A stretch of 64,000 nucleotides of DNA. It comes from an uncultured Balneolaceae bacterium. Its GTDB lineage: Bacteria; Bacteroidota; Rhodothermia; Balneolales; Balneolaceae. The stretch is taken from contig CAZPWQ010000001.1 of NCBI GenBank assembly GCA_964590495.1, positions 13,502 to 77,501 on the forward strand. Reading direction: 5' to 3'. Both the position numbers and the translations under genes were made by a program. Below, piece by piece: positions 12,773 to 53,168 of the stretch (position 1 is the stretch's first letter; the number at the start of each line of letters is the position of its first letter). The notes beneath the pieces are model-generated. The model saw only the letters and a list, made by a program, of their open reading frames with translations. It ran no database searches and was not told the origin of the DNA.

Positions 12773-13102
12773 CTATCTCTGTTTCCGAATAAAAAAGACA
12801 TTTCCAGCTCGGGATTTTACGACTAAGGCACTTAGCTTTGTGTTCTTAATGCCTTGGTGGTATTCCCAATCCGTCTCATCCCTCCCCCTCTCACATAACG
12901 CCTCCCTACTCAGAAATTAATCCCTATAATCTTATAAAAGAGCCTGTTTTTAATAATTATTTTTATTAAATATGGGATAAATATTTTCATAATCATGCAA
13001 AAAGATTGAACTGACCCAGAAATTTTATATAATTAAATATTATAACAAACGTATCCCCACCCCGTGGGTGCAGATAAATTTTATAATCTCGAACATACTG
13101 TT

Positions 13103-14821: not shown

Positions 14822-14831
14822 GGAGGATATT

Positions 14832-15395
14832 ATGAACAGACGAGAAGCACTTAAACGACTGGCGCTGCTTTCGGGCGGAGCCCTCTCACTTTCAACGGTA
14901 AGCGGTATTCTGGGAGGCTGCCGCGCAAACGGAGACGGTGGCTCACTGCAAACTTTATCTCAGGATCAGTTCGAACTTGTTGCGCAAATGGCTGATTTGA
15001 TTATCCCGCCAACCGAAACCCCGGGTGCCAAAGCAGCGGGCGTACAGAATTTCGTAGATCATATGCTCACCAACTGGAATACAGAAGAAGAGAAGGAGCA
15101 TTTTCTCGAGGGACTGGATTATGTTGATGAAGTAAGTGAAGACAATTACGACTCCGGATTCATGGAACTTAATGATCAGCAGCAAACAGAGGTTCTGAAA
15201 CTACTGGAACAGGAAGCCAACGATAATCCCACGAGCGGAGAACTTAAACCTTTCTTTAAGATGATGAAAGAGTATACTATTGTAGGCTACTATACGTCAG
15301 AGATTGGAGCAGATGAGGAGCTTCAGGACGATACCGTTCCCGGTTATTACGATGCCTGTTTGCCTTATTCAGAGGTTGGCACCGCCTGGTCATAG
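14832..15395 (+). CDS. gluconate 2-dehydrogenase subunit 3-like small subunit with twin-arginine signal
   Basis: MNRREALKRLALLSGGALSLS is a Tat-type signal. 187 aa, starting 10 nt after the GMC stop. This is the usual partner that carries GMC flavoproteins to the periplasm. Confidence 0.85.
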   Translation: MNRREALKRLALLSGGALSLSTVSGILGGCRANGDGGSLQTLSQDQFELVAQMADLIIPPTETPGAKAAGVQNFVDHMLTNWNTEEEKEHFLEGLDYVDEVSEDNYDSGFMELNDQQQTEVLKLLEQEANDNPTSGELKPFFKMMKEYTIVGYYTSEIGADEELQDDTVPGYYDACLPYSEVGTAWS

Positions 15396-17618: not shown

Positions 17619-18878
17619 ATGAATAAATTGATTCAAGCGAAACTAAGCGCGATGATGTTTCTGGAATTCTTTATCTGGGGTGCCTGGTATACTGCAGTAG
17701 CTGTTTATATGACGGCAAATGGTATGGAAAACCTGACGCACTGGCCGTTTACGGTAAATCCTATTGCGGCTATAGCGGCGCCTTTTTTTGTGGGGCTGAT
17801 TGCCGACCGTTATTTCGCTACTGAAAAAGTTCTGGGTGTACTTCATATGCTGGGAGCTGTCTTTATGTTTTTAACGCCCTTCGCTGTTGGTTTTCCCACT
17901 GTATTCATTTTACTTCTTTTGGCTTATAATTTATGCTATATGCCAACCATAAGTCTGACCAATACACTGGCTTTTCATAATATGGAAGATCAGGAAAAAC
18001 AATTCCCGATCATCCGGGTATTCGGCACTGTCGGCTGGATTGTCGCCGGCTTAATGGTAAGTTTCGTGCTCGGTTATTTTCTTACTGAAAATCTTAAACC
18101 GGAAGAAACAGCCCTCCCGCTTTACCTGACATCCGCAGCCAGCCTTTTATTGGGTGTGTACAGCTTTTTCCTCCCACACACCCCACCCCCGGCAAAGGGA
18201 GAAGAAGTATCCATTCGCAGTATTGTCGGAGCGGATGCACTCAAACAATTGGGAAGCAAATCATTTTATGTATTCTTAGCCAGCTCTCTTTTAATTTCAA
18301 TTCCACTGGCAGCTTATTATAATTTTACGCAGTTATTTTTGGGGGCGACCGGGTTTGAAAATATAGCTGCAACACAAACGATCGGCCAGGTCTCCGAGGT
18401 GATTTTTATGGTCCTGATACCGTTCTTCTTCATTCGCCTGGGCGTTAAATGGATGCTTGCAGCGGGTATGTTTGCCTGGGTAGCACGTTATGCCTTGTTT
18501 GCGCTCGGAGCCCCTACAGAGGCTGCCTGGATGATCCTTGCAGGTATTGCCTTACATGGTATCTGTTATGACTTCTTCTTTGTTACAGGCCAAATTTACG
18601 TAGATAAAAAAGCGACGGCCGCAGTACGGGGACAGGCGCAGGGTCTGATTGTACTTATTACTTACGGTGTAGGTATGCTTATCGGTGCCCAGCTGGCCGG
18701 CCTTCTCTATAATGCTTTCCTTGACGATGCAGTTGCCCTGACGCTGAATCAATGGCACGATTTCTGGTGGGTGCCCGCTGCCTTTGCCTTTATTGTCATG
18801 ATCATATTTATTGTACTGTTTGATGACAAAGTCATCGAAGAAAAGGAGGAGGCCGATCTCGAGGATTTTCGGGTTTAA
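17619..18878 (+). CDS. MFS transporter of the nucleoside:H+ symporter (NupG/XapB-like) family
   Basis: 419 aa, about 12 predicted TM segments. N-terminal LSAMMFLEFFIWGAWYTAVAVYM and GLIADRYF are typical of this family. The substrate is not inferable. Confidence 0.85.
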   Translation: MNKLIQAKLSAMMFLEFFIWGAWYTAVAVYMTANGMENLTHWPFTVNPIAAIAAPFFVGLIADRYFATEKVLGVLHMLGAVFMFLTPFAVGFPTVFILLLLAYNLCYMPTISLTNTLAFHNMEDQEKQFPIIRVFGTVGWIVAGLMVSFVLGYFLTENLKPEETALPLYLTSAASLLLGVYSFFLPHTPPPAKGEEVSIRSIVGADALKQLGSKSFYVFLASSLLISIPLAAYYNFTQLFLGATGFENIAATQTIGQVSEVIFMVLIPFFFIRLGVKWMLAAGMFAWVARYALFALGAPTEAAWMILAGIALHGICYDFFFVTGQIYVDKKATAAVRGQAQGLIVLITYGVGMLIGAQLAGLLYNAFLDDAVALTLNQWHDFWWVPAAFAFIVMIIFIVLFDDKVIEEKEEADLEDFRV

Positions 18879-22410: not shown

Positions 22411-22417
22411 AAATTTG

Positions 22418-34980: not shown

Positions 34981-35022
34981 CTGCTATTAATTATTCCAAC
35001 CTATTTCGCTGTTCTCTGCAAA

Positions 35023-35112: not shown

Positions 35113-35135
35113 GAAGGGAGCGGTCCGCAGTTAAC

Positions 35136-35201: not shown

Positions 35202-35324
35202 GAAACTCTACCCCTTCGTATGGCCTCTTCCATTGACAATGCCTTTTATATAAGAGCTTCAACTTTTATAATCTACTTATCATTTTATTAACAAGCCTCA
35301 TGTATCAAATCCCCATTAGAGGAT

Positions 35325-35897: not shown

Positions 35898-36115
35898 TCC
35901 GGAGCTATGTATTTAAATTTTTAATATTTCGACGAAAATCTGCGGTTTAATTCCTGAAACAGTTGAATCGTTATGAATATGATTCAGGTTTTTCTAAAAC
36001 TTATCATGAAAAGATAAAGAACTCGATATATTTGTAAAAAAATCAATTCATTTTCATCCAAAATTATATTGACAAAACCAGTCACCGGGCGAGGAAAATT
36101 GCCATAATTATCAGA

Positions 36116-36152
36116 TATAAAAAAAGGGAAGCATATGTTGCCATATACTTCC
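36116..36152 (-). terminator. rho-independent terminator after susD-2
   Basis: On the minus strand, GGGAAGtATATG-gcaa-CATATgCTTCCC followed by TTTTTTTAT. Confidence 0.75.
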
Positions 36153-36175
36153 CTTTATAACTTTATGCTGTTTTA

Positions 36176-37819
36176 TCAGTATCCCGGATTTTGCACCAGA
36201 TTTGTATTTGATTCCAACTGATTATCGGGTACAGGAAAGACATTTCTGTGGGTACCTGATACGTCTTTTTCCCACCACTCATCATTAAAACGTGTTTCTT
36301 CAGTTTCACCCGCGAAACGGATCTGATCCTGACGGCGTGTAATTTCCCAGAATAGTTCACGTCCGCGTTCGTCAAACAGTTTATCCGCATCGAGAGTGGC
36401 AAAAGCATCAACCCCGGCACGTTCTCTTATCTGGTTAACCAGCATTAATGCGGTCGCATCTCCGGGATTCAGTCTCCAGAGGGCTTCTGCCTTCATAAGA
36501 AGGACATCTGCGTATCTGTATATGACAAAGTCATTATTCATATCACCACCGCTCAGGCCTATTTCCATGGCGTACTTGGCAATACGAGCACCTGACTGTC
36601 TCCAGTTACCCGGCGTGAGTTCATTCAAGTATGGTGTATGCGTAATCGGTGGTCCGTTTGGATCACTGGATTCAGCACCCTCATCTTCAATCTGGTTACC
36701 CTGCAGGTCCAGTAGCGGCCCGGCAAGGAAATTGCCCAGACGTTCATCCTGGGTTCCTGTTACAGTAGAACCTTCGGGATCCAATCCTACGACATCACCC
36801 TGCGGACCCGGATTTGAATCCGGATCGATATATGAGCCATAAAACTCGGTTACGGTTTGGAATCCGTTCCAGGGTTGCTCGCCAAAATTGAAAGCCGGCT
36901 GACTCAGGATATGATTCGTCATCATATGCAGATTAAAGCCGGGGAGAAATACCTCATCAAAGGGAATAGTAAAGATATGCTCAGGTGAACCTGTGTTATC
37001 AACAGAGAAATTATCAAAGTAATTACCGGTTAAACTGAAATTACCAGAATCGATAATCGCATTAGTATGTGTAACTACCTCATCCCAGTGTGGAGTGCCG
37101 GTATAGACTTCGGCATTCAGATACAACTTGGCGAGCGTCATATGAACAACCCACTTGTTCACACGTCCGACCGTTGCCCCTACATCTTCATCCACAAGAT
37201 CAAGAACTTCCAACAGCTCGCTTTCTACAAAATCGAATACCTGCTGACGTCCATCATCAAAGTCACTGCTGGGTTGAGCAGTTTCATCAGGACTTTGCTC
37301 AAAGCTGGTTACAATAGGTACATTACCGAAATTGTCCAGTAACATATAGTAGTAAAAAGCCCTGAGTGCTTTTAATTCAGCAATAAATGCAGCTGCATTT
37401 TCTTCACTCACATCGCCCGATTCAACAACCGATTCGAATTGAAAAATCAGCCTGTTGGCATTGGCAACACCTCTGAAAAACTCGTTCCATGTGTTATTTA
37501 TAACATCATCAGAAGGTGTAAATGTATGCCGGTGCAGGCGAATCCAAACACCGCCATCTTCCCAGTCAGCACCTTTATGGCCAACTACGATTTCATCGGA
37601 GGTCACCTCATTTATAGCTGTTACCGCCCAGTTACCACCATATTGACCGAGAGCACCGTAGGCATCACCCAGTGCGGAGATAAATTCTTCATCTGTCTGG
37701 AAGAACTGGTCAGCCGTTGCCTCATTATTAATGCTTTCGGTTAAATCAGTGCAGGACCCGATCAACAGGGCAGGCACCAACAGAATCCATGTCAGAATGC
37801 GTTTATTATATATTTTCAT
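36176..37819 (-). CDS. susD: RagB/SusD-family nutrient-binding outer membrane lipoprotein (pair 2)
   Basis: Lipobox ALLIGSCTDLTES. Collinear with susD-1 with long shared runs (NRLIFQFES, FGNVPI(I/V)TSFE, QPSSDF, LAKLYLN(S/A)EVYTGTP, RFND.WWEKDVS, NLVQNPGY). The track ORF extends to 37831. Confidence 0.93.
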   Translation of the reverse strand: MKIYNKRILTWILLVPALLIGSCTDLTESINNEATADQFFQTDEEFISALGDAYGALGQYGGNWAVTAINEVTSDEIVVGHKGADWEDGGVWIRLHRHTFTPSDDVINNTWNEFFRGVANANRLIFQFESVVESGDVSEENAAAFIAELKALRAFYYYMLLDNFGNVPIVTSFEQSPDETAQPSSDFDDGRQQVFDFVESELLEVLDLVDEDVGATVGRVNKWVVHMTLAKLYLNAEVYTGTPHWDEVVTHTNAIIDSGNFSLTGNYFDNFSVDNTGSPEHIFTIPFDEVFLPGFNLHMMTNHILSQPAFNFGEQPWNGFQTVTEFYGSYIDPDSNPGPQGDVVGLDPEGSTVTGTQDERLGNFLAGPLLDLQGNQIEDEGAESSDPNGPPITHTPYLNELTPGNWRQSGARIAKYAMEIGLSGGDMNNDFVIYRYADVLLMKAEALWRLNPGDATALMLVNQIRERAGVDAFATLDADKLFDERGRELFWEITRRQDQIRFAGETEETRFNDEWWEKDVSGTHRNVFPVPDNQLESNTNLVQNPGY

Positions 37820-37850
37820 TTGTCTGTCCATGATAATTTTAAAAATTATT

Positions 37851-40814
37851 TTAGAAATCGAGATTTACTCCGAATGTGATAGAACGAGCTGTATACCAGG
37901 TATCACGTCGTTCGATGCCCGGAGACAAGGGATTATCAAAATCCCCTGAATCGACCCATCTCACCTCCGGATCAATTCCTTCATAGCCCGTGAGAGTAAA
38001 CAGGTTTCGCCCGGTTACAGATAACCTGAGCCTGTTAACAGGACTTTCGGCCGGTAATGAAACATTATAGCCAATTGACAGATTTTCTAACCTCAGGAAA
38101 GTAGCATCTTCTACATGGAAGCTTGAATATGCCGGGGTAGATTCCAGATTGGCCACATCAAAAGCTGAAGTAGTTACATTATATGTAGTGATATTGGCCG
38201 GATTTTCAAAGAATACCCGGGCACTGTTAACCAGGTCGTGCCCATAGACACCACGTAAGAAAACGCTGGCATCCCAGTTCTTGTAGTTAACTGAGTTTGT
38301 CCATCCCAATTCAAAATCAGGAATACCGTTGCCGATTACCGCTTCATCTTCCCTGGAAATCTCATCACTTGTAATTAAACTTCCGTCAGAATCAAAAAAC
38401 AACCATCGACCGTCATTGCCTATTTCAGCAAATCTCGGCCCCCAGATCTGTCCCAGCGGTTCTCCCGCTTTTACACGAACCTGCTGAGTGTTATTTTGCC
38501 CCGGAGAACCGACATTGGCCAAAAAGCGGGCATTTTCAGATTCAAATTCAACCAACCGTATATCAAAGGTTGAAAACGTAAACCCGGTATTCCAGGCAAC
38601 ATCGGCACTGCGAACTACATCATATTGCAGGGTAGCTTCAAATCCTTTACTCTCAATCTCACCAACATTTAACCATGAGGTGGGGAAAAGATTCGGTGGA
38701 ACCGGAACTTCCATCTCAAGGATGAGATCGTCTGTATTTTTCTGGTAGTATTCGACGGTACCGGTAAGTCGTTCATCAAGTAATGCAAAATCCAGACCAA
38801 TATTGGACTCGCTGGTTTCCTGCCATTTTAAATCCGGATTATCATTACTGATCGGGCCGAAGCTCTGTACAAATCTTCCGCCTACAAAGAAGTTTCCTCT
38901 GGGAGCAAATCGCAGACGGGAGATTCCGTCAAACGGAGCATCCTGTCCGGTTATGCCAAAACTGCCGCGCAGTCTCAAGCGGTCCAAAAAGTCAACTTCT
39001 ACAAGATTCAGTACCTCAAGGCCTGCACCTGTTGACCAAAATGTTCCCCACCGGTTATTTGCACCAAATCTTGAAGAACCTTCCCTGCGAATCGTTCCAT
39101 TCAGGAAGAATGTATCATCCCAGTTCAGATTAGCTCGTCCGAAGCCTGCTATCAGCTTGTTCTCATTTCTAAAGCTGGAGAGATCACCAAGACCATTGTC
39201 AAAATCCTGGATAAAACCAAGGTTATGCGGGCCGGTGGCGTCTGATATAAAATCACCGCCGCCGACAAATGTTCTTTCTTCCTCAAAATCTGAATAGGAA
39301 TATCCGCCCAGAACTTCAAGATTTAAGTTTTCCGAAACAGTGGTCAGATAGTTCAACGTAATATCAAACTGTTCTGCCCTGTTATCATTTGCCTCCCGCT
39401 CTGCACGTCCGCGTCCCAATGAGGAGTTCGTTGCTCCTCCGGTAAACTTATTCGTTCTGGCCCAAAAAGCATTTCGGGTACCGGAGAACGTTTGCAGCGA
39501 ATAAAAAGCTGAGGCACTTAACCCGGGAACGAAATCATCAAATGCATAATCTGCTTTTAAAGCAGTGTTCAATCTTTTATTCTCCCTGACATCCTCTGCT
39601 GTTTCAAGAATTGCAACGGGATTAAACATATCAAAGGCATCTATTTCTCTAAAGCCACCTGTAGTTTCAAATCCGGAAGCTGTTACAGGAGCTGTAGGGT
39701 TAAATGTTACCGCATATTGAAATGCATTATTAAACCCGCGATCTTCTTCACGGTCCGTGATGCCCAGATCAAAGGTCAACGTAAGTTTATCGTTAAGTGC
39801 CTGGTGACTGAGATTTAACCGCCCGCTGGTCTGATTGAATCCCGTTGTTCGCAACAGCCCCTGATTATCTCTGAAATTACCTGAGACCCGGTAGGTGGTG
39901 GTTTCATTTCCACCGGCGATCGACAGATTGTGAATTTGTGTATAACTATTCTGGGTGATTTCGTCGAACCAATCAGTATCATCTCCAAAATCATTTATTT
40001 CAAAATTGGTAATATTTCCCAACTCCCTGAATTGATCAGCACTCAATACATCAATTTTATTTTCAACACCGGTAGTACTGAAAGAACCTGAATAATTCAC
40101 TGAAGTTTGTCCTGATTGACCTGTTTTTGTGGTAATGGCAATAACACCGGCCCCTCCCCGGGTACCGTAGATAGCTGCCGCAGATGCATCTTTCAAAACA
40201 TCAATCGATTCAATGTCATTGGGATCGATATTCTGCATGCTGGCTCCTACTATACCATCCACAACTACCAATGGTTGCGTATTTCCGAAGCTGGAAATGC
40301 CCCGCAAACGGAGTGTAGGAGTCTCATTAGGATTGGAGCCCGGACTTGATATATTCAGACCCGGTACTTTTCCCTGTATAAGTTCCGCCGGGTTATTCAC
40401 ATCCCCTTTATTAAAATCTTCCGAATTTACACTGGAGATCGAACCGGTTACCTGTTTTCTTTCCTGGGTACCATATCCAACCACAACAACATCATCCAAT
40501 GCCTGGACATCAGAGGCCATTTCAACATCAATAGTTGATCGGCCATCTACCGGAACTTCCTGAGTCAGATATCCGACAAAGGAAAATACCAGTGTATCCT
40601 GTTCCGGCACTGTTAAAGAATATGCACCGTTACTGTTTGTGGAAGTACCGGTTGTAGGTGAGCTTTTTACAATAACATTCACGCCTGGCAATGCCTGCCC
40701 GTCGGCGGCATCTGTCACCTGACCTGTTACTTCTATACTGCTCTGAGCGTATGTCTCAGTTATTAATCCAAGTCCTAAAACTAAAAAAGCTACAATATTC
40801 AGGCGGATAATCAT
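37851..40814 (-). CDS. susC: SusC/RagA-family TonB-linked outer membrane protein (pair 2)
   Basis: Signal MIIRLNIVAFLVLGLGLITETYAQ. VTGQVTDAADGQALPGVNVIV. VVVGYGTQERKQVTGSISSV. IDVLKDASAAAIYGTRGGAGVIAITTK. C-terminal ARSITFGVNLDF. Paralogous to susC-1 over the full length. The track ORF extends to 40907. Confidence 0.93.
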   Translation of the reverse strand: MIIRLNIVAFLVLGLGLITETYAQSSIEVTGQVTDAADGQALPGVNVIVKSSPTTGTSTNSNGAYSLTVPEQDTLVFSFVGYLTQEVPVDGRSTIDVEMASDVQALDDVVVVGYGTQERKQVTGSISSVNSEDFNKGDVNNPAELIQGKVPGLNISSPGSNPNETPTLRLRGISSFGNTQPLVVVDGIVGASMQNIDPNDIESIDVLKDASAAAIYGTRGGAGVIAITTKTGQSGQTSVNYSGSFSTTGVENKIDVLSADQFRELGNITNFEINDFGDDTDWFDEITQNSYTQIHNLSIAGGNETTTYRVSGNFRDNQGLLRTTGFNQTSGRLNLSHQALNDKLTLTFDLGITDREEDRGFNNAFQYAVTFNPTAPVTASGFETTGGFREIDAFDMFNPVAILETAEDVRENKRLNTALKADYAFDDFVPGLSASAFYSLQTFSGTRNAFWARTNKFTGGATNSSLGRGRAEREANDNRAEQFDITLNYLTTVSENLNLEVLGGYSYSDFEEERTFVGGGDFISDATGPHNLGFIQDFDNGLGDLSSFRNENKLIAGFGRANLNWDDTFFLNGTIRREGSSRFGANNRWGTFWSTGAGLEVLNLVEVDFLDRLRLRGSFGITGQDAPFDGISRLRFAPRGNFFVGGRFVQSFGPISNDNPDLKWQETSESNIGLDFALLDERLTGTVEYYQKNTDDLILEMEVPVPPNLFPTSWLNVGEIESKGFEATLQYDVVRSADVAWNTGFTFSTFDIRLVEFESENARFLANVGSPGQNNTQQVRVKAGEPLGQIWGPRFAEIGNDGRWLFFDSDGSLITSDEISREDEAVIGNGIPDFELGWTNSVNYKNWDASVFLRGVYGHDLVNSARVFFENPANITTYNVTTSAFDVANLESTPAYSSFHVEDATFLRLENLSIGYNVSLPAESPVNRLRLSVTGRNLFTLTGYEGIDPEVRWVDSGDFDNPLSPGIERRDTWYTARSITFGVNLDF

Positions 40815-41229
40815 TGAAGATATTCCACTGCTGATATATTGCAATTTTCTTTTAGAAGGGCCGGAATTAAGCAGAAAGCTAAATCTCCGTATCGCATTCG
40901 TAATCATAGTATTCCCCTTTGGTTATTATTTACTTATAAAGTCAAATCGCTCGAATTATCGACGGGCTCTATTACTTCAACAAAATGTGATTCTGTTGCA
41001 TCAATTGAGTTATCCCTATCGCCAGTCACTACCTAAAAAAGGCATTAACAAATACAAGCTATTTCCAGCTTTATAATTGCCCCTTTTTTTCAAAGAAGCA
41101 AATTTTTTTAACAAGTATGAAATTTTTTTTTCTCTTTATACAAGGAGATGAAAATGTTGCTAAAATTTATTTAATACAGGTTAGACCGACCAGTCTAAAC
41201 CAATTAAATTCCTCCCATTCGTCATTTGC

Positions 41230-43284
41230 CTAATCCATCACTCTCATCGTCCCCTGCATTGTTCGCCAGTGTCCCGGGAAGGTACATACGTAGGGATAAT
41301 CATCCGGTTGCTCAGGAGCAGTAAAATAGATCGATTCTGATTCACCGACTTCGAGCAGACTTGTATAGAACAGCACATTGTCGGATTGCGGGACGTAATC
41401 GAGCTTGGGTCCGTCCAGACCCATGTTCAGTGCATTTTGTGCGACTGTTTCCAGCCTCCCCGGTTCTACAATCAGCAGGTTATGCAAAAGATCGGTGGGA
41501 TTATTAAAAACAATTCTCACCCTGCTGCCGGCTTTCACTTCAAAATCGGTCACATCAAAAGTCATCGCCGCGGCGGCATTTATAGTAATTACAGTGTCGG
41601 GTCCGTTGCTCCATGAAGCGGGCTGCTCAGTCTGATGTTTCCTGTTTTCAGTACCGGCTGCTCCTTCCTCCCCGGTGGTTTCAGATGGTGAAATGGTACC
41701 CTGGACATTCAGCTTGTCGCCTTCGGGTATATTTTTCATGGTGTAATATCCGACAGAATGGAGCAGCGGATAATTTGTTTCAGCCTGTCTTACACCCTCA
41801 GCTTTTATTTCGTGAACATATCCTTCACGAATATTATTGACTACAAGCCGGGCAGAGAGGCCGTCTTCTCTTATCTCGACATGGGTTACCGGTACATCTT
41901 CCTGGTTGAGAATATCGCTGCCATAGGTAGAGTGATAGTGATAAGTGAAACCGGAAATTTCATAAGAAGAGGGATCGGCTGCAGATTCCCTGTCGACCGG
42001 CTTTGTAAAGGTAAGTTCGAAACCATCGGGTTTGGCATAAATCTCCCGGATCTCAAAAGGTGTTTCTCCGCTCCAGACAACCTGTTCCAGACCATAGGGT
42101 TCACCCCCCATAGCAGACCAGCCGCGGGCGGTCTGACCCACAAACATGGAATTATCACTGCCCCAGCTCATGCGAAGTACTCCCGATTCAAAACCCTCAA
42201 CGAAAGGAAACACCACACCCTGGTATTCACCTTTTACCTTTTCCTGGAAAACTCTCATTATTTTACTTTGTCCCTGGTCGCCGACAAAAAGCTGGTTTTC
42301 GAAAGGTCCGAATTCTCCCCCGGTATCGTCCAGCAGAATGCCGGATGTTGAGATACCCATCACCCCGTGCGGAAACCATACAGAAGGTGTTTTAAGTTCC
42401 GGAATATTTTTTGCCACCTCATGCATCGGCTCTCCGGAATCAGGAATATCATCAAGTTTCAGTGAAACAGGCGATCCGGTCATATGAGACCAGCGCAAAC
42501 CCTCCGGATTACCAGCGAAATCACCTTGTTCCAAATGAGTTATATTGCCCGATCCAACCCAGTCGCCCTGGTTTTCAGCATAAAAAAGATCACCATCGGC
42601 GTTAAAGCCGAACGCGGCGGGTGAGCGCAATCCTGTTGCCACCGGTTCAACTTCACCATCAGGAGAAACCTGCAACAGCCATCCATCCCATTCAGACAAA
42701 CTTGCTCCGTGTCCGATCCAGGCCAGATTTACGGTAACCAGCATATCGCCGTTCGGCAGGAAAAGCGGCCCGTAAAAATATTCATGATAATTCCCTGAAA
42801 GAGGGCGATTCCATATCGTTTTATACTCGTCTGCCAATCCATCTCCATCGGAATCCCTCAGACGGGTTATTTCTGGTCGCTGTGTAACATATACGGCCTC
42901 ATCACTGTAAGTGAGACCGAGTGGTTCATGCAATCCCTCGGCAAAAAGCCGGTATTCCGGAGGATTACCATTACTCTGGTAAGGATTTTCAATTATCCAG
43001 ACTTCCCCACGGCGGGTACATACGGCTAAACTTCCGTCCGGCAACAGATCCATTCCCCCAACTTCCAGAATAATATCATCAGGTACAGGAATGTCAACTA
43101 TTTCGTAATAATCTGATTCAGTCGGAATATTCGTCTGAGCAAAACTGATAACAGGCAGCAACATAAGCAGGATTATTACTCCTCCCGGCAGAGAAAAACG
43201 GAAACCTGCGATCGCGGGTTTACTCAGTTGGCAAAGCTTAGATATACAGTATTTCATATTCTTTATCATTTTGGGAAAATCCAT
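41230..43284 (-). CDS. beta-propeller (glucose/sorbosone-dehydrogenase-like or membrane-bound-dehydrogenase-domain-like) protein with C-terminal azurin-type cupredoxin domain
   Basis: 684 aa with a signal peptide ending ...LLPVISFAQT. Propeller-like N-terminal region (GGMDLLPDGSLAVCTRRGEVWII, HEPLGLTY, DSDGDGLADEY, GLRSPAAFGFNADGDLFYAENQGDW). C-terminal ~125 aa carries type-1 copper ligands (see domain feature). Confidence 0.8.
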   Translation of the reverse strand: MDFPKMIKNMKYCISKLCQLSKPAIAGFRFSLPGGVIILLMLLPVISFAQTNIPTESDYYEIVDIPVPDDIILEVGGMDLLPDGSLAVCTRRGEVWIIENPYQSNGNPPEYRLFAEGLHEPLGLTYSDEAVYVTQRPEITRLRDSDGDGLADEYKTIWNRPLSGNYHEYFYGPLFLPNGDMLVTVNLAWIGHGASLSEWDGWLLQVSPDGEVEPVATGLRSPAAFGFNADGDLFYAENQGDWVGSGNITHLEQGDFAGNPEGLRWSHMTGSPVSLKLDDIPDSGEPMHEVAKNIPELKTPSVWFPHGVMGISTSGILLDDTGGEFGPFENQLFVGDQGQSKIMRVFQEKVKGEYQGVVFPFVEGFESGVLRMSWGSDNSMFVGQTARGWSAMGGEPYGLEQVVWSGETPFEIREIYAKPDGFELTFTKPVDRESAADPSSYEISGFTYHYHSTYGSDILNQEDVPVTHVEIREDGLSARLVVNNIREGYVHEIKAEGVRQAETNYPLLHSVGYYTMKNIPEGDKLNVQGTISPSETTGEEGAAGTENRKHQTEQPASWSNGPDTVITINAAAAMTFDVTDFEVKAGSRVRIVFNNPTDLLHNLLIVEPGRLETVAQNALNMGLDGPKLDYVPQSDNVLFYTSLLEVGESESIYFTAPEQPDDYPYVCTFPGHWRTMQGTMRVMD
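41233..41616 (-). other. azurin-like blue-copper (cupredoxin) domain of the 684-aa protein
   Basis: FEVKAGSRVRIVFNNPTDLLHNLLIV ... YPYVCTFPGHWRTMQGTMRV. The C-T-F-P-G-H-x3-M spacing (codons at 41257-41286) is the azurin ligand loop (compare CTFPGHSALM of classical azurin), with an upstream His in LLHNLLI. No CxxCH haem motif seen. Confidence 0.8.
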
Positions 43285-43290
43285 TAATGC

Positions 43291-45180
43291 TTACCAGATA
43301 ATTTCATATTGTAAAACTATTTCTTCATCGCCGTTTGCAATCGGAATGCGAAGGTCGTGCCTGCCTGCGGTAATAACTATTTGGGGATCAATTCCACCCG
43401 TATCAACAACCCTCAGATAATATGCTCTGTCATCTATAGCATATTCATCATCGTTTTTGACAATCTTATTACCGGAAGCCAGCTTAACCCAGATATCATC
43501 CCGGCTATCGGGCGTTTTAAAGGTAAGGGTTCGCAATAACCGTCTGTTCTTCGGATATCCCTCAAAGGTATCTTCAATACTTATATCCTCCAGTGTATAT
43601 TTGAATGCCGGCCAACCATCTTCCGTTATATTATACCCCTCCACCTCTAATTGGTCACGGGCTATAGAATCCGGCCAGACTGCGTTACTGTTGTTTAATT
43701 TTGCCAGTACAGGTTTTCCGTCAAAGCTTACCGGGGGACCTGCCGGTTTTGCTATCTGGGGTTCTCCCCTGTCAATCCACATTTCATTTGCATTAATATA
43801 AGGCCCCTCCCAGGCGTGTAAAAGAGCTGCCTGACCCAAATCGTAACTGTAGTTGATTCCGTCAGGCGAACCTACATTCACCACATGTGTTCGTTTTGAA
43901 TCCTTGTGATTTGCAAAAGAACGAAGAACTTTTACTCTGTCGTCAACTTCCACCAGCAAGTCTGGCAATTCTCTTCCGCCTCCCGGTACCGAAGAGGAAG
44001 CATGAAGTTTTTGAAGCCGGAGTTGCGGACCTTCTGCAAAAAGTGAAAGGCCGCGGTACCAGTTATTGGGATGGTTAAGATATTCCAGTCTGAAGCTGTG
44101 TTCGCCGCTTTCCAGATCAAGGGTTTCCGACTCAAGCTCATGCATCCTAAAGGGACGATCCTGATCAAATACAACTTCATCATCGATAAGCAAGCGAACT
44201 GTACCGGCATTTTGAAGCTTGAACAGATATGTTCCGCTGTTCGGCGCCTCGAGTGTACCTGTATATAGGAGTGCGTAACGGTCGTCGCGGTTTACTACAT
44301 TTCCAGCGAGCGAGTCGGTTGAACCGGCCTCATCGGCTTCCGATGAACTGAAGTCTGGAAACTCTTCAAACTCCCCGGCGTAATAACCGTACCTCAGACC
44401 ATTGAGGCCTATCTGTTTTTTGTCGTATCTTTTATAGGTGATATTCCGGATCGCCACAGGGCCGTGATCACCCTGGATCATCAGCGGACCTTCCGGTTGT
44501 TCGTCCTGAAAATGTGACTCTATAGTCGGGCCGGTAACTTCCACATCCTCCTGGATCAGCGCGCCGTTTAACCAGACCTCTTCGAATCTGGCATTGGCAA
44601 CTTTTTCGCCCGCCTGATTGAATTCCGGGGCTTTAAACAAAATTTTATAATGCTGCCACAATCCCGGTGCCCTGGCTGCATTCAGCCGGGGAGCACTGCC
44701 TTCAATCTCTTCATCTCCGACACTGCGCCGGTAAATTCCTCCCACATCACTGTACTGGGGATTTTCTACACCCCAGCTGTCAAATAACTGCAGTTCATAA
44801 CGCCCCATCAGGTAAATTCCGGAATTCGAACCTTTTGGCATCAGGAAGTCCAGCTCGAGTTCAAGATCTCCATGTGACCATGCCGTAAAGAGATGATCGC
44901 TGTTTTCACCGGAGGGTTGATTAACCAAAATTCCCGTACCATCCAAACCACTCAGATCGTGTTCTTCCTTACGGTTGCTTTCCACATCCCCGGCTATACT
45001 CCAGTTCTCGGCAACCGGCTGAAAAGCCTCTAAATTATTCAGATTCAACTGCTGCATCGGCAGGGTTTCAAGCGGCTCTTCTTCTGCTTTATTACAGCCT
45101 TGAAAAAAGAAGAGACTTATTACTAAACCAAACAGAAGTGCCGGCTTTAAATACGAATTTCTGAAAAGTTGCTTTTGCAT
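43291..45180 (-). CDS. DUF1080 - PA14 - unknown C-terminal domain lipoprotein
   Basis: Lipobox LFFFQGCNKAEEE (start taken at MQKQLF; the track ORF extends to 45225). DUF1080 part (FTAWSHGDLELELDFLMPKGSNSGIYLMGRYELQLFDSWG ... LMIQGDHGPVAIRNITYKR). PA14-like part about 44011-44403 (GLRYGYYAGEFEEFPDF...GTYLFKLQNAGTVRLLIDDEVVFD...HSFRLEY). About 235 C-terminal residues are unassigned. Confidence 0.8.
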   Translation of the reverse strand: MQKQLFRNSYLKPALLFGLVISLFFFQGCNKAEEEPLETLPMQQLNLNNLEAFQPVAENWSIAGDVESNRKEEHDLSGLDGTGILVNQPSGENSDHLFTAWSHGDLELELDFLMPKGSNSGIYLMGRYELQLFDSWGVENPQYSDVGGIYRRSVGDEEIEGSAPRLNAARAPGLWQHYKILFKAPEFNQAGEKVANARFEEVWLNGALIQEDVEVTGPTIESHFQDEQPEGPLMIQGDHGPVAIRNITYKRYDKKQIGLNGLRYGYYAGEFEEFPDFSSSEADEAGSTDSLAGNVVNRDDRYALLYTGTLEAPNSGTYLFKLQNAGTVRLLIDDEVVFDQDRPFRMHELESETLDLESGEHSFRLEYLNHPNNWYRGLSLFAEGPQLRLQKLHASSSVPGGGRELPDLLVEVDDRVKVLRSFANHKDSKRTHVVNVGSPDGINYSYDLGQAALLHAWEGPYINANEMWIDRGEPQIAKPAGPPVSFDGKPVLAKLNNSNAVWPDSIARDQLEVEGYNITEDGWPAFKYTLEDISIEDTFEGYPKNRRLLRTLTFKTPDSRDDIWVKLASGNKIVKNDDEYAIDDRAYYLRVVDTGGIDPQIVITAGRHDLRIPIANGDEEIVLQYEIIW

Positions 45181-45214
45181 ATAAATTCTCTGATATCCCT
45201 GATAGAAATTTATG

Positions 45215-46054
45215 TTAATTATCACCTAACGGACGAATCCAGATATTGCGAAACCTGACGAGATCGCCATGATCCTGCAATCTCAACGGCATCTTATCGG
45301 GATGAGCCACATAGCGTGGTTTATCGATATAAACTGTGGGGCCTTTTAACTCCACATTATTCAAAATCAGGACTCCATTGTGAAATGCAGTCACACGGGC
45401 GGATGATTGCAGATTACCCGCTTCATCAAATTCCGGCGCTGAAAACACAATATCATAAGCCTGCCACTCTCCCGGTGGTCTGCTTGCATTAACAAGCGGT
45501 ATGTACTGTTTATAAATACTTCCGGCCTGACCATTGGAATAGGTTTCATTTTCAAACGAATTAAGAATCTGGATTTCATACAAGCTCATTAGAAATACGC
45601 CACTATTACTGTATCCCTGCCCGCTTTTGCCTTCATCAACCGGTGCCAGCCACTCAATATGAAGCTGAAAATTATCGAACTTCTGCCTGGTTTCAATAGC
45701 CCCGGTGCCCGGATTCACGACTAAATCACCGTCGGAAATATTCCATTGGGCTTCTTCATGGTCATAATTGTCGTCCCACTTTTCAAACATCTTCTCAACT
45801 CCGTCTGCTGTTGTAGGCTCACCCCGGAATTGCGGTTTTTGCCATTCGGACAAATCCTCTCCGTCAAATAATACGATGGCATCGGAAGGCGGATGATCAA
45901 GTCCGAGCAAATCGCCGGGAGTAACTACCGGAGGCACAGGTTCCCAGACCTCGCTTTCTTCAGGCTTGACATCCTGTGCCTGAACGGTCATAAAGCACAG
46001 AGTAAAGATACTTAACAGCACCATCAATTTGGGAGAATTGTCTGATTGAGTCAT
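45215..46054 (-). CDS. DUF1080 (3-keto-disaccharide hydrolase family) protein, secreted
   Basis: Signal LSIFTLCFMTVQAQ. FQLHIEWLAPVDEGKSGQGYSNSGVFLMSLYEIQILNS; VTAFHNGVLILNNVEL; LRLQDHGDLVRFRNIWIRPL. Confidence 0.9.
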   Translation of the reverse strand: MTQSDNSPKLMVLLSIFTLCFMTVQAQDVKPEESEVWEPVPPVVTPGDLLGLDHPPSDAIVLFDGEDLSEWQKPQFRGEPTTADGVEKMFEKWDDNYDHEEAQWNISDGDLVVNPGTGAIETRQKFDNFQLHIEWLAPVDEGKSGQGYSNSGVFLMSLYEIQILNSFENETYSNGQAGSIYKQYIPLVNASRPPGEWQAYDIVFSAPEFDEAGNLQSSARVTAFHNGVLILNNVELKGPTVYIDKPRYVAHPDKMPLRLQDHGDLVRFRNIWIRPLGDN

Positions 46055-46517
46055 GTTATTGAAAAGGCTTTAATAAGATTAACGCACTTTGATTGAAGAC
46101 TTCTTATTCAAGATAAACCTGTAGTTTAGGTATGGATTTATAAGCACCACTTGTTTAGATAAAACTAATTTAATCCTTAGCAGAAAGGCACCATTATATA
46201 TTTTATATCCGCCAGAAAATACCTATCAAAATAACAGATTATTTCTAAAATTATAGTTTATTTTTTATCCCGTTTATGCAAAAAATGCAAAAAATTTGTC
46301 CGATCCTTCTGACCCCCTTTTTGCCCCTAAATCCCCTAAAGGGGACTTGTAATGAGTGGCTTTTGAAGAAAAGTAGCTTTTTATTTAAATGCAGAGACAT
46401 ATCTTAAATATGATTTCGTATTCTGTAGCCAACTCATACTCAAAAAATTACGGGACGTTTCAGTCCGCAAAACCCCGGACTTCCAGTTTTGTTAACAGCC
46501 CACTGGCGTCATTATCA

Positions 46518-46629
46518 GCAAGGGCAACTAATCATGCCTTTTGTTAAAATTGACAGCTATTTTACAGCGGATGAGATCCCTCCACTACAGCCCCGATAAA
46601 AAACATCGGGACTTCCGGTCGGGATGACA
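46518..46629 (+). repeat. ~111-nt dispersed repeat, copy 2 (copy 1 at 31315..31425)
   Basis: Same orientation and full-length alignment with copy 1. Ends 16 nt from the stop codon of the TIM-barrel gene (46646). Confidence 0.85.
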
Positions 46630-46645
46630 ATGCAAGTGTGCATTT

Positions 46646-47692
46646 TCAATCCAATCCGAGCACCTTCCGGTTAAGTTCATCATCAGCACCGGCACCGGCA
46701 AAATCGTCGAACGCTTTTTCTGTTTTTTGAATAATATGTTCGGCAATAAAGGGTGCCCCTTCAGCGGCTCCCTGCTCGGGATGTTTCAGGCAGCACTCCC
46801 ATTCCAGCACGGGCCAGCCTTCGAAATCGTACTGAGCCAGCTTGCTGAAAATAGCTTTGAAATCTACGTCACCATCACCCAGCGACCGGAAACGTCCGGG
46901 ACGATCTACCCAGCTTTGATAGCCGCCATACACGCCGGAACGGCCGGTAGGATTGAATTCGGCATCCTTTACATGGAACATGCGAATGCGTTCGTGATAG
47001 ATATCGATAAATTGAATGTAATCAAGCTGCTGCAATACAAAGTGGCTGGGGTCGTACAGAATATTCGCACGGGGATGGTTATCGGTCACCTCAAGAAACT
47101 TTTCAAATGTAACTCCATCGTGCAGATCTTCTCCGGGATGTAATTCGTAACATACATCCACGCCGTTTTCATCAAAGACATCCAGGATCGGCTTCCATCG
47201 TTTTGCCAGCTCTTCAAATCCGGCTTCCACGAGTCCCGCCGGACGCTGAGGCCATGGATACATCGTATGCCACAAAAGTGCGCCGGAAAAACTAACATGT
47301 TCGGTAATGCCGAGATTCTGACTGGCTTTGGCTGCCAATTCCAGCTGGTTTATTGCCCATTCGGTACGTTCATCGGGCTTACCGTGTAACTCCTCCGGGG
47401 CAAAACCATCGAACAATTTGTCATAGGCTGGATGTACGGCCACAAGCTGGCCCTGAAGGTGTGTCGACAACTCCGTGATTTCCACACCGGCTTCGTTTAC
47501 AACACCCTTGATCTCATCAGCATAGGTCTGGCTTTCAGCCAGTTTTTCGAGATCAACACATCGCGGATCCCAGGTGGGAATCTGAACTCCTTCGTACCCC
47601 AGGCCGGCTGCCCATTCGCAGATTGATTTTAAATTATTAAACGGTTCTTCATCGCCCATAAACTGGGCCAAAAATATTGCTGGACCTTTCAT
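46646..47692 (-). CDS. xylose-isomerase-like TIM-barrel protein (sugar phosphate isomerase/epimerase family), cytoplasmic
   Basis: 348 aa with no signal peptide. AAGLGYEGVQIPTWD, VCYELHPGEDLHD, ILYDPSHFVLQQLDY, MFHVKDAEF, PVLEWECCLKHPEQGAAEG. Confidence 0.9.
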   Translation of the reverse strand: MKGPAIFLAQFMGDEEPFNNLKSICEWAAGLGYEGVQIPTWDPRCVDLEKLAESQTYADEIKGVVNEAGVEITELSTHLQGQLVAVHPAYDKLFDGFAPEELHGKPDERTEWAINQLELAAKASQNLGITEHVSFSGALLWHTMYPWPQRPAGLVEAGFEELAKRWKPILDVFDENGVDVCYELHPGEDLHDGVTFEKFLEVTDNHPRANILYDPSHFVLQQLDYIQFIDIYHERIRMFHVKDAEFNPTGRSGVYGGYQSWVDRPGRFRSLGDGDVDFKAIFSKLAQYDFEGWPVLEWECCLKHPEQGAAEGAPFIAEHIIQKTEKAFDDFAGAGADDELNRKVLGLD

Positions 47693-47868
47693 AAGAATAG
47701 ATATTTTAAATTAAGATTGGTTAAATAGAACACGGATAATGCGATTTTTATGGATTTGCACGGATAAATATATCATTCTTTAATATTCACTTCTGGAATA
47801 TTATCCGGGATAGCCTGATCACTAGAGCGGGGGTTAATTCCCGCGGCTAGAAATTACTTACCATCAAT

Positions 47869-49026
47869 CTATTGTTTAAATTTTGTCCACTTCTTATCGC
47901 TTTTATTGGATTCAATCAGCGTATCGATAAAGGCGATGCCGCGCACACCGTCGTGTACTGTTGGGAAATCCAGATGCTCAGGGGCGGGTTTCTCTCCGCT
48001 TAACCGGCTGCCCAGTGCCTGTGCAAAGTTTCTGTAAACATTTGCAAAGGCTTCTATGAAACCCTCGGGATGACCTGCGGGAAGCCTGGTGTTTAGTGTC
48101 GCATTTTCACCGATATAAGGATTTCCTGTTCGATATTTTTCTTCAGGTTGTCCCTGGTGTTTGACGTACAACGTATTTGGCTCTTCCTGATGCCATTCCA
48201 ACCCGCCTTTTTCTCCATAGACATAAATTTTGAGCGAGTTCTCTTCACCCACGCTTATCTGGCTAGCATGAAGCACACCTTTTGCACCGTTTTCAAAACG
48301 CAATAATACGTTTCCGTCGTCATCCAATGGACGGCCTTCTACAAAGGTACTCAGGTCGGCACACAGCTCGGAAATTTGCAAACCGGTTACATATTCAGCC
48401 AGGTTCTCGGCATGCGTTCCGATATCTCCCATGGCTCCTGCCGGACCTGCTTTCTCAGGATCGGTACGCCACGAGGCCTGTTTATTCCCTTCCTCCTCCA
48501 GTTTGGTGGCGAGCCATCCCTGCGGATACTCTACTACAATCTTCCGGATTTCTCCCAGGTCGCCCTCTTCAACCATCTGGCGCGCCTGTTTTACCATCGG
48601 ATACCCGGTATAATTGTGCGTCAGTGCAAACAGCAATCCGGTATCCTCAACCAGTGACTGCAGCTCCCTGGCTTCCTTCAGATTTACCGTCATTGGCTTG
48701 TCACATACAACGTGGAATCCATTTTCCAAAGCCAGTTTGGCCGGTGGAAAATGCAAATGATTCGGAGTGACGATAGATACAAAATCCATCCTTTCCCCTT
48801 CCGGAAATTCTTTCTCCTTCTTGATCATCTCCTCAAACGAACCGTATGCACGATCTTCGTCGAGAAACAGCTCTTTGCCGGTAGCCTTTGATTTTTCAGG
48901 ACTGCTGCTGAAAGCTCCACACACCAGTTCGATATACCCGTCGAGTGCGGCAGCTTTACGATGGACTTCTCCGATAAAAGCCCCTTTGCCACCGCCGACC
49001 ATTCCCATTCTCACTTTTCTTTCCAT
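47869..49026 (-). CDS. Gfo/Idh/MocA-family NAD(P)-dependent oxidoreductase, cytoplasmic
   Basis: 385 aa. Rossmann start VRMGMVGGGKGAFIGEVHRKAA; DFVSIVTPNHLHFPPAKLALENGFHVVCDKPM. No signal peptide. Confidence 0.92.
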   Translation of the reverse strand: MERKVRMGMVGGGKGAFIGEVHRKAAALDGYIELVCGAFSSSPEKSKATGKELFLDEDRAYGSFEEMIKKEKEFPEGERMDFVSIVTPNHLHFPPAKLALENGFHVVCDKPMTVNLKEARELQSLVEDTGLLFALTHNYTGYPMVKQARQMVEEGDLGEIRKIVVEYPQGWLATKLEEEGNKQASWRTDPEKAGPAGAMGDIGTHAENLAEYVTGLQISELCADLSTFVEGRPLDDDGNVLLRFENGAKGVLHASQISVGEENSLKIYVYGEKGGLEWHQEEPNTLYVKHQGQPEEKYRTGNPYIGENATLNTRLPAGHPEGFIEAFANVYRNFAQALGSRLSGEKPAPEHLDFPTVHDGVRGIAFIDTLIESNKSDKKWTKFKQ

Positions 49027-49124
49027 AATAATTTTAGAAGTTAGATTAAAAAATTTTATTCCTGCATGTGGAATTAAAAAAGAATATTGATAAAAATCAT
49101 TTGTAATGCAGTAATTTCGATTCC

Positions 49125-49333
49125 TATCTCGTCCCGGTGTCTTTCCCGACTGCTGTCAGTGCTCTGCTCCGTGACGGAAAAACCAACCGCCCTGCTGCCG
49201 TTAGCTGCGCTATTTTTAAAATGTTGGGACAACTTTTCAACTAAACTGCATGTTGCGGAGCAAAGCTCCGCGTATAATCAATTGCCTTTTCATAATTCAT
49301 CGACGTCCCGCAGCAGAGCTACGGGACGAGATA
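49125..49333. repeat. MITE-like 209-bp element with perfect 12-bp terminal inverted repeats
   Basis: TATCTCGTCCCG (49125-49136) and CGGGACGAGATA (49322-49333) are exact reverse complements. The right end also forms the hairpin CGTCCCG (49304-49310) / CGGGACG (49322-49328). Internal segment TCCCGACTGCTGTCAGTGCTCTGCTCC recurs at 35023-35053. No coding capacity except the spurious ORF 49087..49350. Confidence 0.6.
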
Positions 49334-49382
49334 AAAAAAGGGTGAGATAGATTATATCTGTAACCTGTTATATAAATGCAGG

Positions 49383-53003: not shown

Positions 53004-53168
53004 AATGTTTTTTATTGCAAACGGTAATATTGAGATATTTTAACAACTAGTAAAAGTGCAAAGTGAAACTTTTCTTTGCAACTATTATTTATCAGGATTT
53101 TAATTACGTTTTGTTTGGGCTTATAGCCTTACTATTATTAAACGTTTAGCTGAACCAGAGCCAACGGT

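Follow-up and report, generated by a model that had tools for sequence, protein, structure and literature searches.

The window analysed here is a stretch of 64,000 nucleotides from an uncultured Balneolaceae bacterium (NCBI GenBank assembly GCA_964590495.1, contig CAZPWQ010000001.1, positions 13,502 to 77,501 of the forward strand). This work deals with five adjacent genes at its positions 41230-49026, which encode a Gfo/Idh/MocA oxidoreductase (Gfo), a xylose-isomerase-like TIM barrel (TIM_b), two proteins of the DUF1080 family (DUF1080_b and the lipoprotein DUF1080-PA14) and a propeller protein with an azurin-like copper domain (propeller-azurin). We consider it reasonably probable that they are parts of a known non-hydrolytic route of glycoside cleavage through 3-keto intermediates, organized in at least two separate units and not in one operon. 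The first unit (Gfo and TIM_b) would carry out the last two steps in the cytoplasm, neither enzyme cleaving the glycosidic bond: the TIM barrel would hydrate 2-hydroxy-3-keto-glucal to 3-keto-glucose, and Gfo would reduce the latter to glucose with NAD(P)H. The second unit (DUF1080_b, DUF1080-PA14 and propeller-azurin, all exported) would act outside the cytoplasm, the DUF1080 domains being candidate eliminases/hydratases of oxidized glycosides, the PA14 domain a putative sugar-binding module, and propeller-azurin a candidate sugar dehydrogenase passing electrons via its own copper centre. The first oxidation might be due to a GMC flavoprotein complex encoded elsewhere in the window, to propeller-azurin, or to both; a further DUF1080 lyase (DUF1080_a) and a NupG-like permease would complete the pathway. 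These assignments differ in their basis: that of the hydratase is homology; the reductase role of Gfo, and the view that both halves belong to one pathway, derive from conserved gene neighbourhood; and the roles of the three exported proteins come from fold and gene pairing only.

The host (G000; 4.0 Mb in 290 contigs) is a salt-loving Balneolaceae-type bacterium, and several proteins of the window are closest to those of Aliifodinibius, Fodinibius and Halalkalibaculum. A preliminary description of the region had listed the five genes, their domains, the presence or absence of export signals and their common orientation upstream of the susC-2/susD-2 pair, all of which agree with the open reading frames (ORFs), the Pfam matches and the N-termini. 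It had also pointed to an oxidation-elimination-hydration-reduction route employing the Gfo, TIM-barrel and DUF1080 families; such a route does exist (Nasseri et al., bioRxiv 10.1101/2024.03.25.586180; Bitter et al., PMC10628242), and the proposed division of its steps between periplasm and cytoplasm is plausible.

The TIM barrel belongs to the AP_endonuc_2 family (xylose-isomerase-like TIM, 4e-42) and matches, over its full length, the 2-hydroxy-3-keto-glucal hydratase of PDB entry 8RO4 (613 bits, E 1e-183, residues 1-347 onto 4-349; 73.5% identity by BLASTP). It carries no signal peptide and is present as a single copy in the host genome. Since 8RO4 is 84% identical to an orthologue encoded on a Rhizobium plasmid, this structure fits AtHYD of Agrobacterium tumefaciens; we take it to be the one described by Kastner et al. 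in 2024. Relatives of TIM_b occur in at least 596 loci of Bacteroidota, Alpha- and Gammaproteobacteria, at 71-81% identity, and the hydratase/reductase core is, as judged by sequence comparison, extremely conserved (>70% identity across phyla). The A. tumefaciens enzyme is inactive on a 3-keto-glycoside (3-keto-phlorizin) and hydrates the elimination product (Bitter et al., PMC10628242). By homology, TIM_b is thus predicted to be a cytoplasmic orthologue of the AtHYD-type 2-hydroxy-3-keto-glucal hydratase and not a lyase, since it is of the hydratase type and AtHYD does not act on the 3-keto-glycoside itself. The suggestion that the barrel belongs to a 3-keto pathway has stood, and the lyase function suggested together with it has not.

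Gfo shows the N- and C-terminal domains of the GFO_IDH_MocA families (1e-18 to 4e-30), and its N-terminus, MERKVRMGMVGGGKGAF, enters the Rossmann fold directly, with neither a signal peptide nor a twin-arginine (Tat) export signal. It had been suggested to be a glycoside C3-dehydrogenase, a view which the data do not support: against the curated family of glycoside 3-dehydrogenases (BT_2158_fam, NF058561) it reaches 35.9 bits for a cut-off of 750, it lacks the Tat signal, and it has a conserved hydratase partner. Its best curated family, levoglucosan dehydrogenase (LGDH, NF052479), is likewise far from reached (127.6 bits, cut-off 650), and the nearest structures (3v5n, the best match with 418 bits, 3dty and 7d5m) are all uncharacterized. 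On the other hand, a Gfo gene (at least 40% identical) adjoins the TIM_b orthologue, immediately upstream of it, in 51 out of 73 loci of other species having enough flanking sequence; because of this adjacency, the Gfo-TIM pairing is not due to chance. The protein is 49% identical to the Gfo encoded beside the hydratase orthologue on the Rhizobium plasmid, and the Gfo of the same operon in A. tumefaciens (WP_038490970.1) converts 3-keto-glucose into glucose with NADH (Bitter et al., PMC10628242). Given the conserved hydratase neighbour and the failure to score as a glycoside 3-dehydrogenase, we read Gfo as a reductase and not as the oxidant; judging from gene neighbourhood, it is probably the NAD(P)H-dependent 3-keto-glucose reductase partnering the hydratase.

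Concerning the DUF1080 proteins, the preliminary description had given their family as that of the 3-keto-disaccharide hydrolases (its Pfam name), which does not hold for the activity: the characterized AL2 and BT2 are alpha-lyases and hydratases, not hydrolases, lyase and hydratase activities overlap in the AL/BT enzymes, and the channel of BT2 is lined by E103, N134, E164, Q166, Y190, K245, Q273 and H275 (Nasseri et al., bioRxiv 10.1101/2024.03.25.586180). DUF1080_b (PF06439, 3keto-disac_hyd, 3e-43, 148 bits) has a Sec signal (...FMTVQAQD) and finds its best PDB match in BDI_3914 (4qhz, 213 bits); phmmer gave no match between it and BT2 or AL2 at E <= 0.01. DUF1080-PA14 combines PF06439 (2e-24, 87 bits) with a PA14 domain (2e-10) behind a lipoprotein signal (...FFFQGC); its ORF, which ends at 43291, runs to 45225, and the database version starts at 45180 (629 aa). 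When aligned to AL2, with the mapping to BT2 numbers inferred, DUF1080_b (33% identical) keeps E, N, E-x-Q, Y and Q-x-H and has Arg in place of Lys, and DUF1080-PA14 (26%) keeps D, N, E-x-Q, Y and Q. From these comparisons, DUF1080_b would belong to the BDI_3914 subfamily and is a candidate 3-keto-glycoside lyase/hydratase, and both proteins fall, by sequence, into uncharacterized subfamilies. Since their identity to AL2 is low and some of their channel residues differ, a lyase role for the two is advanced as a hypothesis. More than 3600 homologues share the architecture of DUF1080-PA14, whose AlphaFold2 (AF2) model (predicted local distance difference test score, pLDDT, 88) consists of a 4qhz-like jelly roll, also matching the fold of BT2/AL2, the PA14 domain and a C-terminal domain. 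The PA14 domain fold-matches the PA14 modules of glycoside hydrolases of families GH3 and GH31 and of flocculins. The C-terminal ~235 aa (43291-44040) are modelled as a well-folded, beta-rich domain (pLDDT ~90), with W457, W468, R471 and G472 invariant in the family, and gave neither a Pfam match nor a clear fold match in the PDB.

Propeller-azurin, which has more than 5000 homologues, starts with a Sec signal (...PVISFAQT) and joins a DUF7133 propeller to a Copper-bind (azurin) domain (7e-9). The copper domain matches auracyanin A in the PDB (1e-14; Foldseek target TM 0.89), and its putative copper ligands H601, C667, H672 and M676 (LLHNLLIV ... YVCTFPGHWRTMQG) show azurin spacing and are invariant in 26 homologues. 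In the AF2 model (pLDDT 83) the propeller is six-bladed and of the soluble glucose dehydrogenase (sGDH) type; Foldseek relates it to the pyrroloquinoline quinone (PQQ) sugar dehydrogenases 2ism, 3a9g, 3das and 7cdy, to 1c9u and to the PQQ domain of the Coprinopsis cinerea pyranose dehydrogenase CcPDH (6jt5), with E values from 1e-9 to 6e-13 and target TM of 0.55-0.71 over the six structures (0.57-0.71 when 1c9u is set aside). The pqqC profile (TIGR02111) gave no match, but the control genomes gave none either. From the model, propeller-azurin is a candidate dehydrogenase of sugars or glycosides in the periplasm, one that would bring its own electron acceptor.

The gene of DUF1080-PA14 is directly followed by that of propeller-azurin in seven of the eight full-length loci examined and also in G008, a genome from a different genus of the same family; because of this recurrence, the clustering is not attributable to chance. 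The pair, with 5-100 bp between its genes in Aliifodinibius, Pontibacter, Salinibacter, four further Balneolales genomes and G008, spans three orders (Balneolales, Cytophagales and Rhodothermales). A diverged paralogous pair is found elsewhere in the host genome (contig C40, 25353-28105), composed of a DUF1080-PA14-like gene (28% identical) and then a propeller gene (48% over the propeller). In addition, G008 encodes, directly upstream of Gfo (L082 13164-16700, contig C131), a 1178-aa DUF7133-HEAT repeat-cytochrome c protein, which takes there the place that one of the ASPIC/UnbV lipoproteins (ASPIC-4) has in the window and looks like a haem-wired counterpart of propeller-azurin. The natural reading of the pair, going by the structural models, would be a sugar dehydrogenase with its own electron acceptor together with a sugar-binding, lyase-type partner. 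Tentatively, and as a possibility that we rate well below our overall reading, the two proteins might constitute a new glycoside-cleaving machine needing neither Gfo nor a flavoprotein: an envelope dehydrogenase would oxidize the glycoside with PQQ or another cofactor and feed the electrons into the respiratory chain by way of its blue-copper domain, after which DUF1080 would eliminate either the aglycone or the sugar that follows; in Balneolaceae, the pair plus the cytoplasmic hydratase/reductase would then replace glycoside hydrolases in loci combining SusC/D and ASPIC proteins.

No oxidant was securely identified inside 41230-49026, and the first oxidizing step is probably provided by the second block of genes (at 13-19 kb), whose GMC flavoprotein matches large subunits of flavin adenine dinucleotide (FAD)-dependent fructose and glucose dehydrogenases in the PDB (128-142 bits) and whose small subunit bears the twin-arginine signal MNRREALKRLALL; this complex is a probable GlycDH-type periplasmic dehydrogenase. 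Of 40 TIM_b orthologue loci flanked by at least 8 kb on either side, 19 have a GMC gene within 10 kb; a DUF1080 gene is present in 26 and a major facilitator superfamily (MFS) gene in 9. A Pseudoalteromonas operon carries TIM_b, MFS, DUF1080, GMC and small subunit in a row, and two Balneolales genomes (L023 and G034) have the order GMC, small subunit, MFS, Gfo, TIM_b. Over 41 Balneolales genomes, the presence and absence of TIM_b and GMC are distributed as 14/4/4/19 (Fisher p = 1.4e-4, not phylogeny-corrected). DUF1080_a, with 209 bits to AL2 (8v31), 198 bits to BT2 (8rr2, 3osd, 8tda) and 56% identity to AL2, is by sequence the true BT2/AL2-type 3-keto-glycoside lyase/hydratase of the window. 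The NupG-like permease, a kind of protein that recurs beside the Gfo-TIM_b pair in many loci, is a probable inner-membrane importer of the keto-sugar intermediate. In other genomes the genes of both blocks sit together, and this conserved neighbourhood suggests that they make up a single A. tumefaciens-like pathway, whose two blocks are kept apart in the window by ~27 kb of SusC/D and ASPIC genes. The 16-kb block of ASPIC-1/2, susD-1, susC-1 and ASPIC-3 is flanked by a perfect inverted repeat of 24 nt (18986-19009 and 35137-35160), which may mark a rearrangement or inversion that parted the two halves.

Two more proteins were considered in this context. The Tat-signal barrel of the second block (TIM_a) has its best PDB match in the uncharacterized 4ovx (354 bits) and lies near hydratase orthologues in one of the 40 loci. 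It was discarded as an equivalent of the A. tumefaciens eliminase AtOGE or of BT1: its PDB matches to C-glycoside deglycosidase and sugar-phosphate-isomerase chains are weak (20-32 bits), as are those to AL1/BT1-like chains, AtOGE is not among its matches at E <= 0.01, and it does not resemble the third TIM gene of the Pseudoalteromonas operon. Outside the window, the best BT2158-like Gfo gene of the genome (contig C22, 33598-34890; 522 bits, cut-off 750) encodes a possible periplasmic glycoside 3-dehydrogenase.

With regard to gene organization (Table 1), the distances between the five genes are uneven: 176 bp between Gfo and TIM barrel, 591 bp between TIM barrel and DUF1080_b, ~34 bp or an overlap between the two DUF1080 genes, 6 bp between DUF1080-PA14 and propeller-azurin, and 322 bp between the latter and susC-2, which follows with susD-2 downstream on the same strand. 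The 591-bp gap includes a ~120-nt, hairpin-containing intergenic repeat, found again at 31312-31436 (copies 82-84% identical; families D12 and D18). Its position after the TIM barrel and upstream of susC-1 suggested a shared cis-element for co-regulation, an idea that was rejected once it had turned up in the genome in at least 22 copies, spread over more than 20 contigs; it is a dispersed element, like the repetitive extragenic palindromes (REP) or miniature inverted-repeat transposable elements (MITE). This gap is probably a boundary between transcription units and, together with the 322-bp gap before susC-2, is the reason why it is not obvious that the five genes form a single operon. Their separation into units is also indicated by the closest sampled relative (G017, hydratase 88% identical), where the Gfo-TIM_b pair stands alone, between MscS and M90 peptidase genes and with a Tat-Gfo gene nearby. 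Promoter and terminator scans of 34900-53300 were no richer than shuffled sequence and therefore cannot define operons (31 promoter sites vs 36.3, Bacteroidota-type promoters not being covered by the scan; 20 terminator sites vs 17.5), and Rfam gave zero matches in 34000-54000.

Table 1. Features of the window (positions count from its first nucleotide).
Feature	Position	Strand	Basis
Gfo/Idh/MocA oxidoreductase (385 aa)	47869..49026	-	ORF + Pfam
TIM barrel TIM_b (348 aa), xylose-isomerase-like	46646..47692	-	ORF + Pfam
Intergenic gap, 591 bp, with REP/MITE-like repeat copy at 46515-46640	46055..46645	.	Sequence
DUF1080_b (279 aa), exported	45215..46054	-	PF06439 + Sec signal
DUF1080-PA14 lipoprotein (629 aa)	43291..45180	-	Pfam + lipobox
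Propeller-azurin (684 aa), exported: DUF7133 propeller, Ig-like domain, type-1 copper domain	41230..43284	-	Pfam, NCBIfam
susC-2 (37851-40907) and susD-2 (36176-37831)	36176..40907	-	TonB_dep_Rec, Plug, CarboxypepD_reg; SusD_RagB
susC-1/susD-1	26136-30956	-	Pfam
ASPIC/UnbV FG-GAP lipoproteins (four)	19045-22449, 22418-25918, 31582-34980, 49383-53003	-	Pfam + lipoboxes
Third SusD of the window	61255-63060		Pfam
GMC flavoprotein (585 aa) and Tat-signal Gluconate_2-dh3 small subunit (187 aa)	13064..15395	+	Pfam
DUF1080_a, exported, BT2/AL2-type	15553-16275	-	PDB matches
TIM_a, Tat-signal TIM barrel	16406-17410	-	RR signal
NupG-like MFS permease	17619..18878	+	PF03825 at 1e-101

The five genes are embedded in an island (19-53 kb) of four ~1150-aa ASPIC/UnbV FG-GAP lipoproteins and two SusC/SusD pairs. 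As had been remarked in the preliminary description, hydrolases are absent from where they would be expected: no glycoside hydrolase (GH) or polysaccharide lyase (PL) family of Pfam was found in the ~40 ORFs scanned across the window, and these ORFs include no hybrid two-component system (HTCS), extracytoplasmic function (ECF) sigma factor or LacI regulator. Thus, of the features that define a polysaccharide utilization locus (PUL), the scanned ORFs present adjacent susC and susD, and neither genes of carbohydrate-active enzymes (CAZymes) nor a dedicated regulator. A 190-aa lipoprotein without a Pfam family is encoded between susD-2 and ASPIC-3 (35325-35897). The ASPIC/UnbV FG-GAP family is expanded in the host genome (22 domain matches, ~17 genes), usually beside SusC/D; a literature search on ASPIC/UnbV proteins in SusC/D loci returned nothing relevant. 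As a gene arrangement, the proposed coupling of the oxidative genes to SusC/D import is seen in some Balneolaceae, and neither in the 40 well-flanked loci of other taxa nor in G017: the link is lineage-specific, seen in the window and in two other genomes. In one of these, G008, a single strand carries DUF7133-HEAT-cytochrome c, Gfo, TIM_b, DUF1080-PA14, propeller-azurin, ASPIC, ECF sigma, FecR and SusC, and no GMC match at E <= 1e-120 was obtained; in the other, Aliifodinibius L099, the order is LacI, two ASPIC, DUF1080-PA14, propeller-azurin, and then ECF sigma, FecR, SusC and SusD. That the oxidative genes act on the substrates which the neighbouring SusC/D pairs import is, in our estimate, roughly an even call.

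Several observations weigh against the reading proposed here. The reductase role of Gfo derives from synteny, and 3v5n and 3dty, its nearest structures, are uncharacterized. Both in-region DUF1080 proteins are far from the characterized BT2/AL2 and, by the inferred numbering used above, the His of DUF1080-PA14 is shifted by one (QGDH for Q-x-H) and its putative Lys is missing. In sequence, the propeller shares no more than 14-16% identity with PQQ dehydrogenases, the likeness being one of fold, and the GMC protein of the window is only 31% identical to that of Pseudoalteromonas. Finally, near the 40 well-flanked, distant TIM_b loci SusD and ASPIC were never found (0/40) and SusC was found in 3/40, and in a host genome with ~17 ASPIC and 23 SusC genes the neighbourhood could have arisen by chance or descent.

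These last counts also speak for a rather unlikely alternative, in which the neighbours would be unrelated: Gfo/TIM and GMC would serve for the general salvage of keto-sugars from small free glycosides or disaccharides, the DUF1080-PA14/propeller-azurin pair would do something else, the substrate of the SusC/D-ASPIC proteins would never enter the 3-keto route, and the juxtaposition would result from rearrangement. In this sense, contigs C45, C56 and C83 of the host carry SusC/D and ASPIC modules that lack oxidative genes, the Gfo-TIM_b pair occurs in unrelated contexts in G017 and in G005 (beside xylose genes), no SusC/D lies within 10 kb of the DUF1080-PA14/propeller-azurin pair in Pontibacter and Salinibacter, and the repeats, among them the perfect 24-nt inverted one, suggest rearrangement. 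Nevertheless, the window, G008 and Aliifodinibius L099 all place the pair between ASPIC and SusC despite 48-64% protein divergence, and G008 also retains Gfo-TIM_b attached; furthermore, PA14 is a carbohydrate-binding module, and the island offers no other candidate glycan-cleaving enzyme.

Less likely still, and in our opinion improbable, is that the genes form one PUL operon, where the cytoplasmic Gfo would be a glycoside C3-dehydrogenase and the TIM barrel a 3-keto-glycoside lyase, acting on glycosides imported by SusC-2/SusD-2 and an inner-membrane carrier. The genes are indeed co-directional and contiguous with susC-2/susD-2, the curated family closest to Gfo (levoglucosan dehydrogenase) oxidizes C3, the overlap of lyase and hydratase activities in the AL/BT enzymes means that a hydratase-type barrel might also eliminate, and G008 keeps the same gene order, with SusC further downstream. 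Against it stand the close identity of the barrel to a hydratase whose A. tumefaciens form is inactive on 3-keto-phlorizin, the scores of Gfo far under every curated cut-off, the two long gaps, one of them with a dispersed repeat, the isolated Gfo-TIM_b pair of G017, and the partners of these genes elsewhere, a periplasmic GMC and exported DUF1080 proteins, which place cleavage in the periplasm. Lastly, catabolism of inositol, of another cyclitol or monosaccharide (IolG/IolE-like, or scyllo-inositol or L-glucose dehydrogenase-like) or of levoglucosan, not of glycosides, is very improbable and was rejected: Gfo does fall within the structural clade of scyllo-inositol/L-glucose dehydrogenase, but the grouping with inositol enzymes that the preliminary description had named as fatal to its proposal was not seen, the weak NCBIfam matches (IolE, TIGR04379, 68.9 bits for a cut-off of 290; IolG, myo-inositol 2-dehydrogenase, TIGR04380, 59.7 for 355; levoglucosan dehydrogenase as above) being far under the curated cut-offs, the hydratase match ten times stronger, and the neighbours DUF1080, GMC and MFS genes, not iol genes.

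Returning to the reading of a divided 3-keto pathway, its closest counterpart is the A. tumefaciens operon, which comprises GlycDH (GMC) with a Tat partner, AtOGE, AtHYD and the Gfo reductase (Bitter et al. 2023, PMC10628242). Both have the hydratase orthologue with Gfo next door, and a GMC protein with a Tat-signal small subunit; in both, periplasmic oxidation would be followed by cytoplasmic hydration and reduction. However, the genes of the window are in two blocks ~30 kb apart, surrounded by genes of SusC/D and ASPIC proteins; the window yielded no cytoplasmic eliminase of the AtOGE type, exported DUF1080 proteins occupying the lyase position, and an MFS permease appears instead of an ABC transporter. 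With B. thetaiotaomicron BT2156-2160 and Alistipes AL1-5 (Nasseri et al., bioRxiv 10.1101/2024.03.25.586180; Liu et al. 2021, PMC8121099) the window shares the same three families, the Bacteroidota-type envelope, an AL2-like protein (DUF1080_a) and the combination of exported lyases with one cytosolic Gfo. Unlike them, it has no Tat-exported BT2158-type Gfo dehydrogenase, its cytoplasmic TIM barrel is of the AtHYD type and not a BT1/AL1 beta-lyase, its in-region DUF1080 proteins come from other subfamilies, and GMC and/or the copper-linked propeller stand in the oxidant's place.

As for propeller-azurin, the six-bladed propeller resembles that of PQQ-dependent soluble sugar dehydrogenases (A. 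calcoaceticus sGDH, T. thermophilus 2ISM, P. aerophilum 3A9G and S. coelicolor 3DAS), and an electron-transfer domain fused to a propeller is also known from CcPDH (6JT5) and from the PVC-type heme-binding CxxCH proteins (TIGR02604). Besides the low identity already mentioned, it differs from the PQQ dehydrogenases and CcPDH in that a type-1 copper (auracyanin-like) domain, not a cytochrome, serves as its redox domain, and in that its gene is obligately paired with that of a DUF1080-PA14 lipoprotein. Finally, the island is like a canonical PUL in its tandem susC/susD pairs flanked by surface lipoproteins, and unlike it in that no GH/PL was found, ASPIC/UnbV FG-GAP lipoproteins being present instead, and no regulator was seen in the window; the relatives G008 and L099 do have ECF sigma and FecR beside SusC.

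To our knowledge, descriptions of glycoside cleavage by the 3-keto route date only from 2021 to 2024 and concern only gut Bacteroides/Alistipes and Agrobacterium. In the locus studied here, the hydratase/reductase core is seen alongside different oxidants and SusC/D import through the outer membrane. The core would be a known pathway in a new lineage, and what varies is its arrangement: a split pathway, a copper-linked pair and a SusC/D-ASPIC setting without glycosidases. It also advises caution in annotation, as neither the Pfam name "3-keto-disaccharide hydrolase" nor the label "Gfo dehydrogenase" reveals the pathway step of a given copy. If the oxidant-lyase couple proposed for DUF1080-PA14 and propeller-azurin is not true, a known pathway would still have been correctly annotated in a lineage new to it; if it is, a function could be assigned to a gene pair that occurs in thousands of genomes of aerobic Bacteroidota, Rhodothermota and Gemmatimonadota, the existence of "CAZyme-free" PULs would be explained, and glycan breakdown would yield respiratory electrons at the cleavage step itself.

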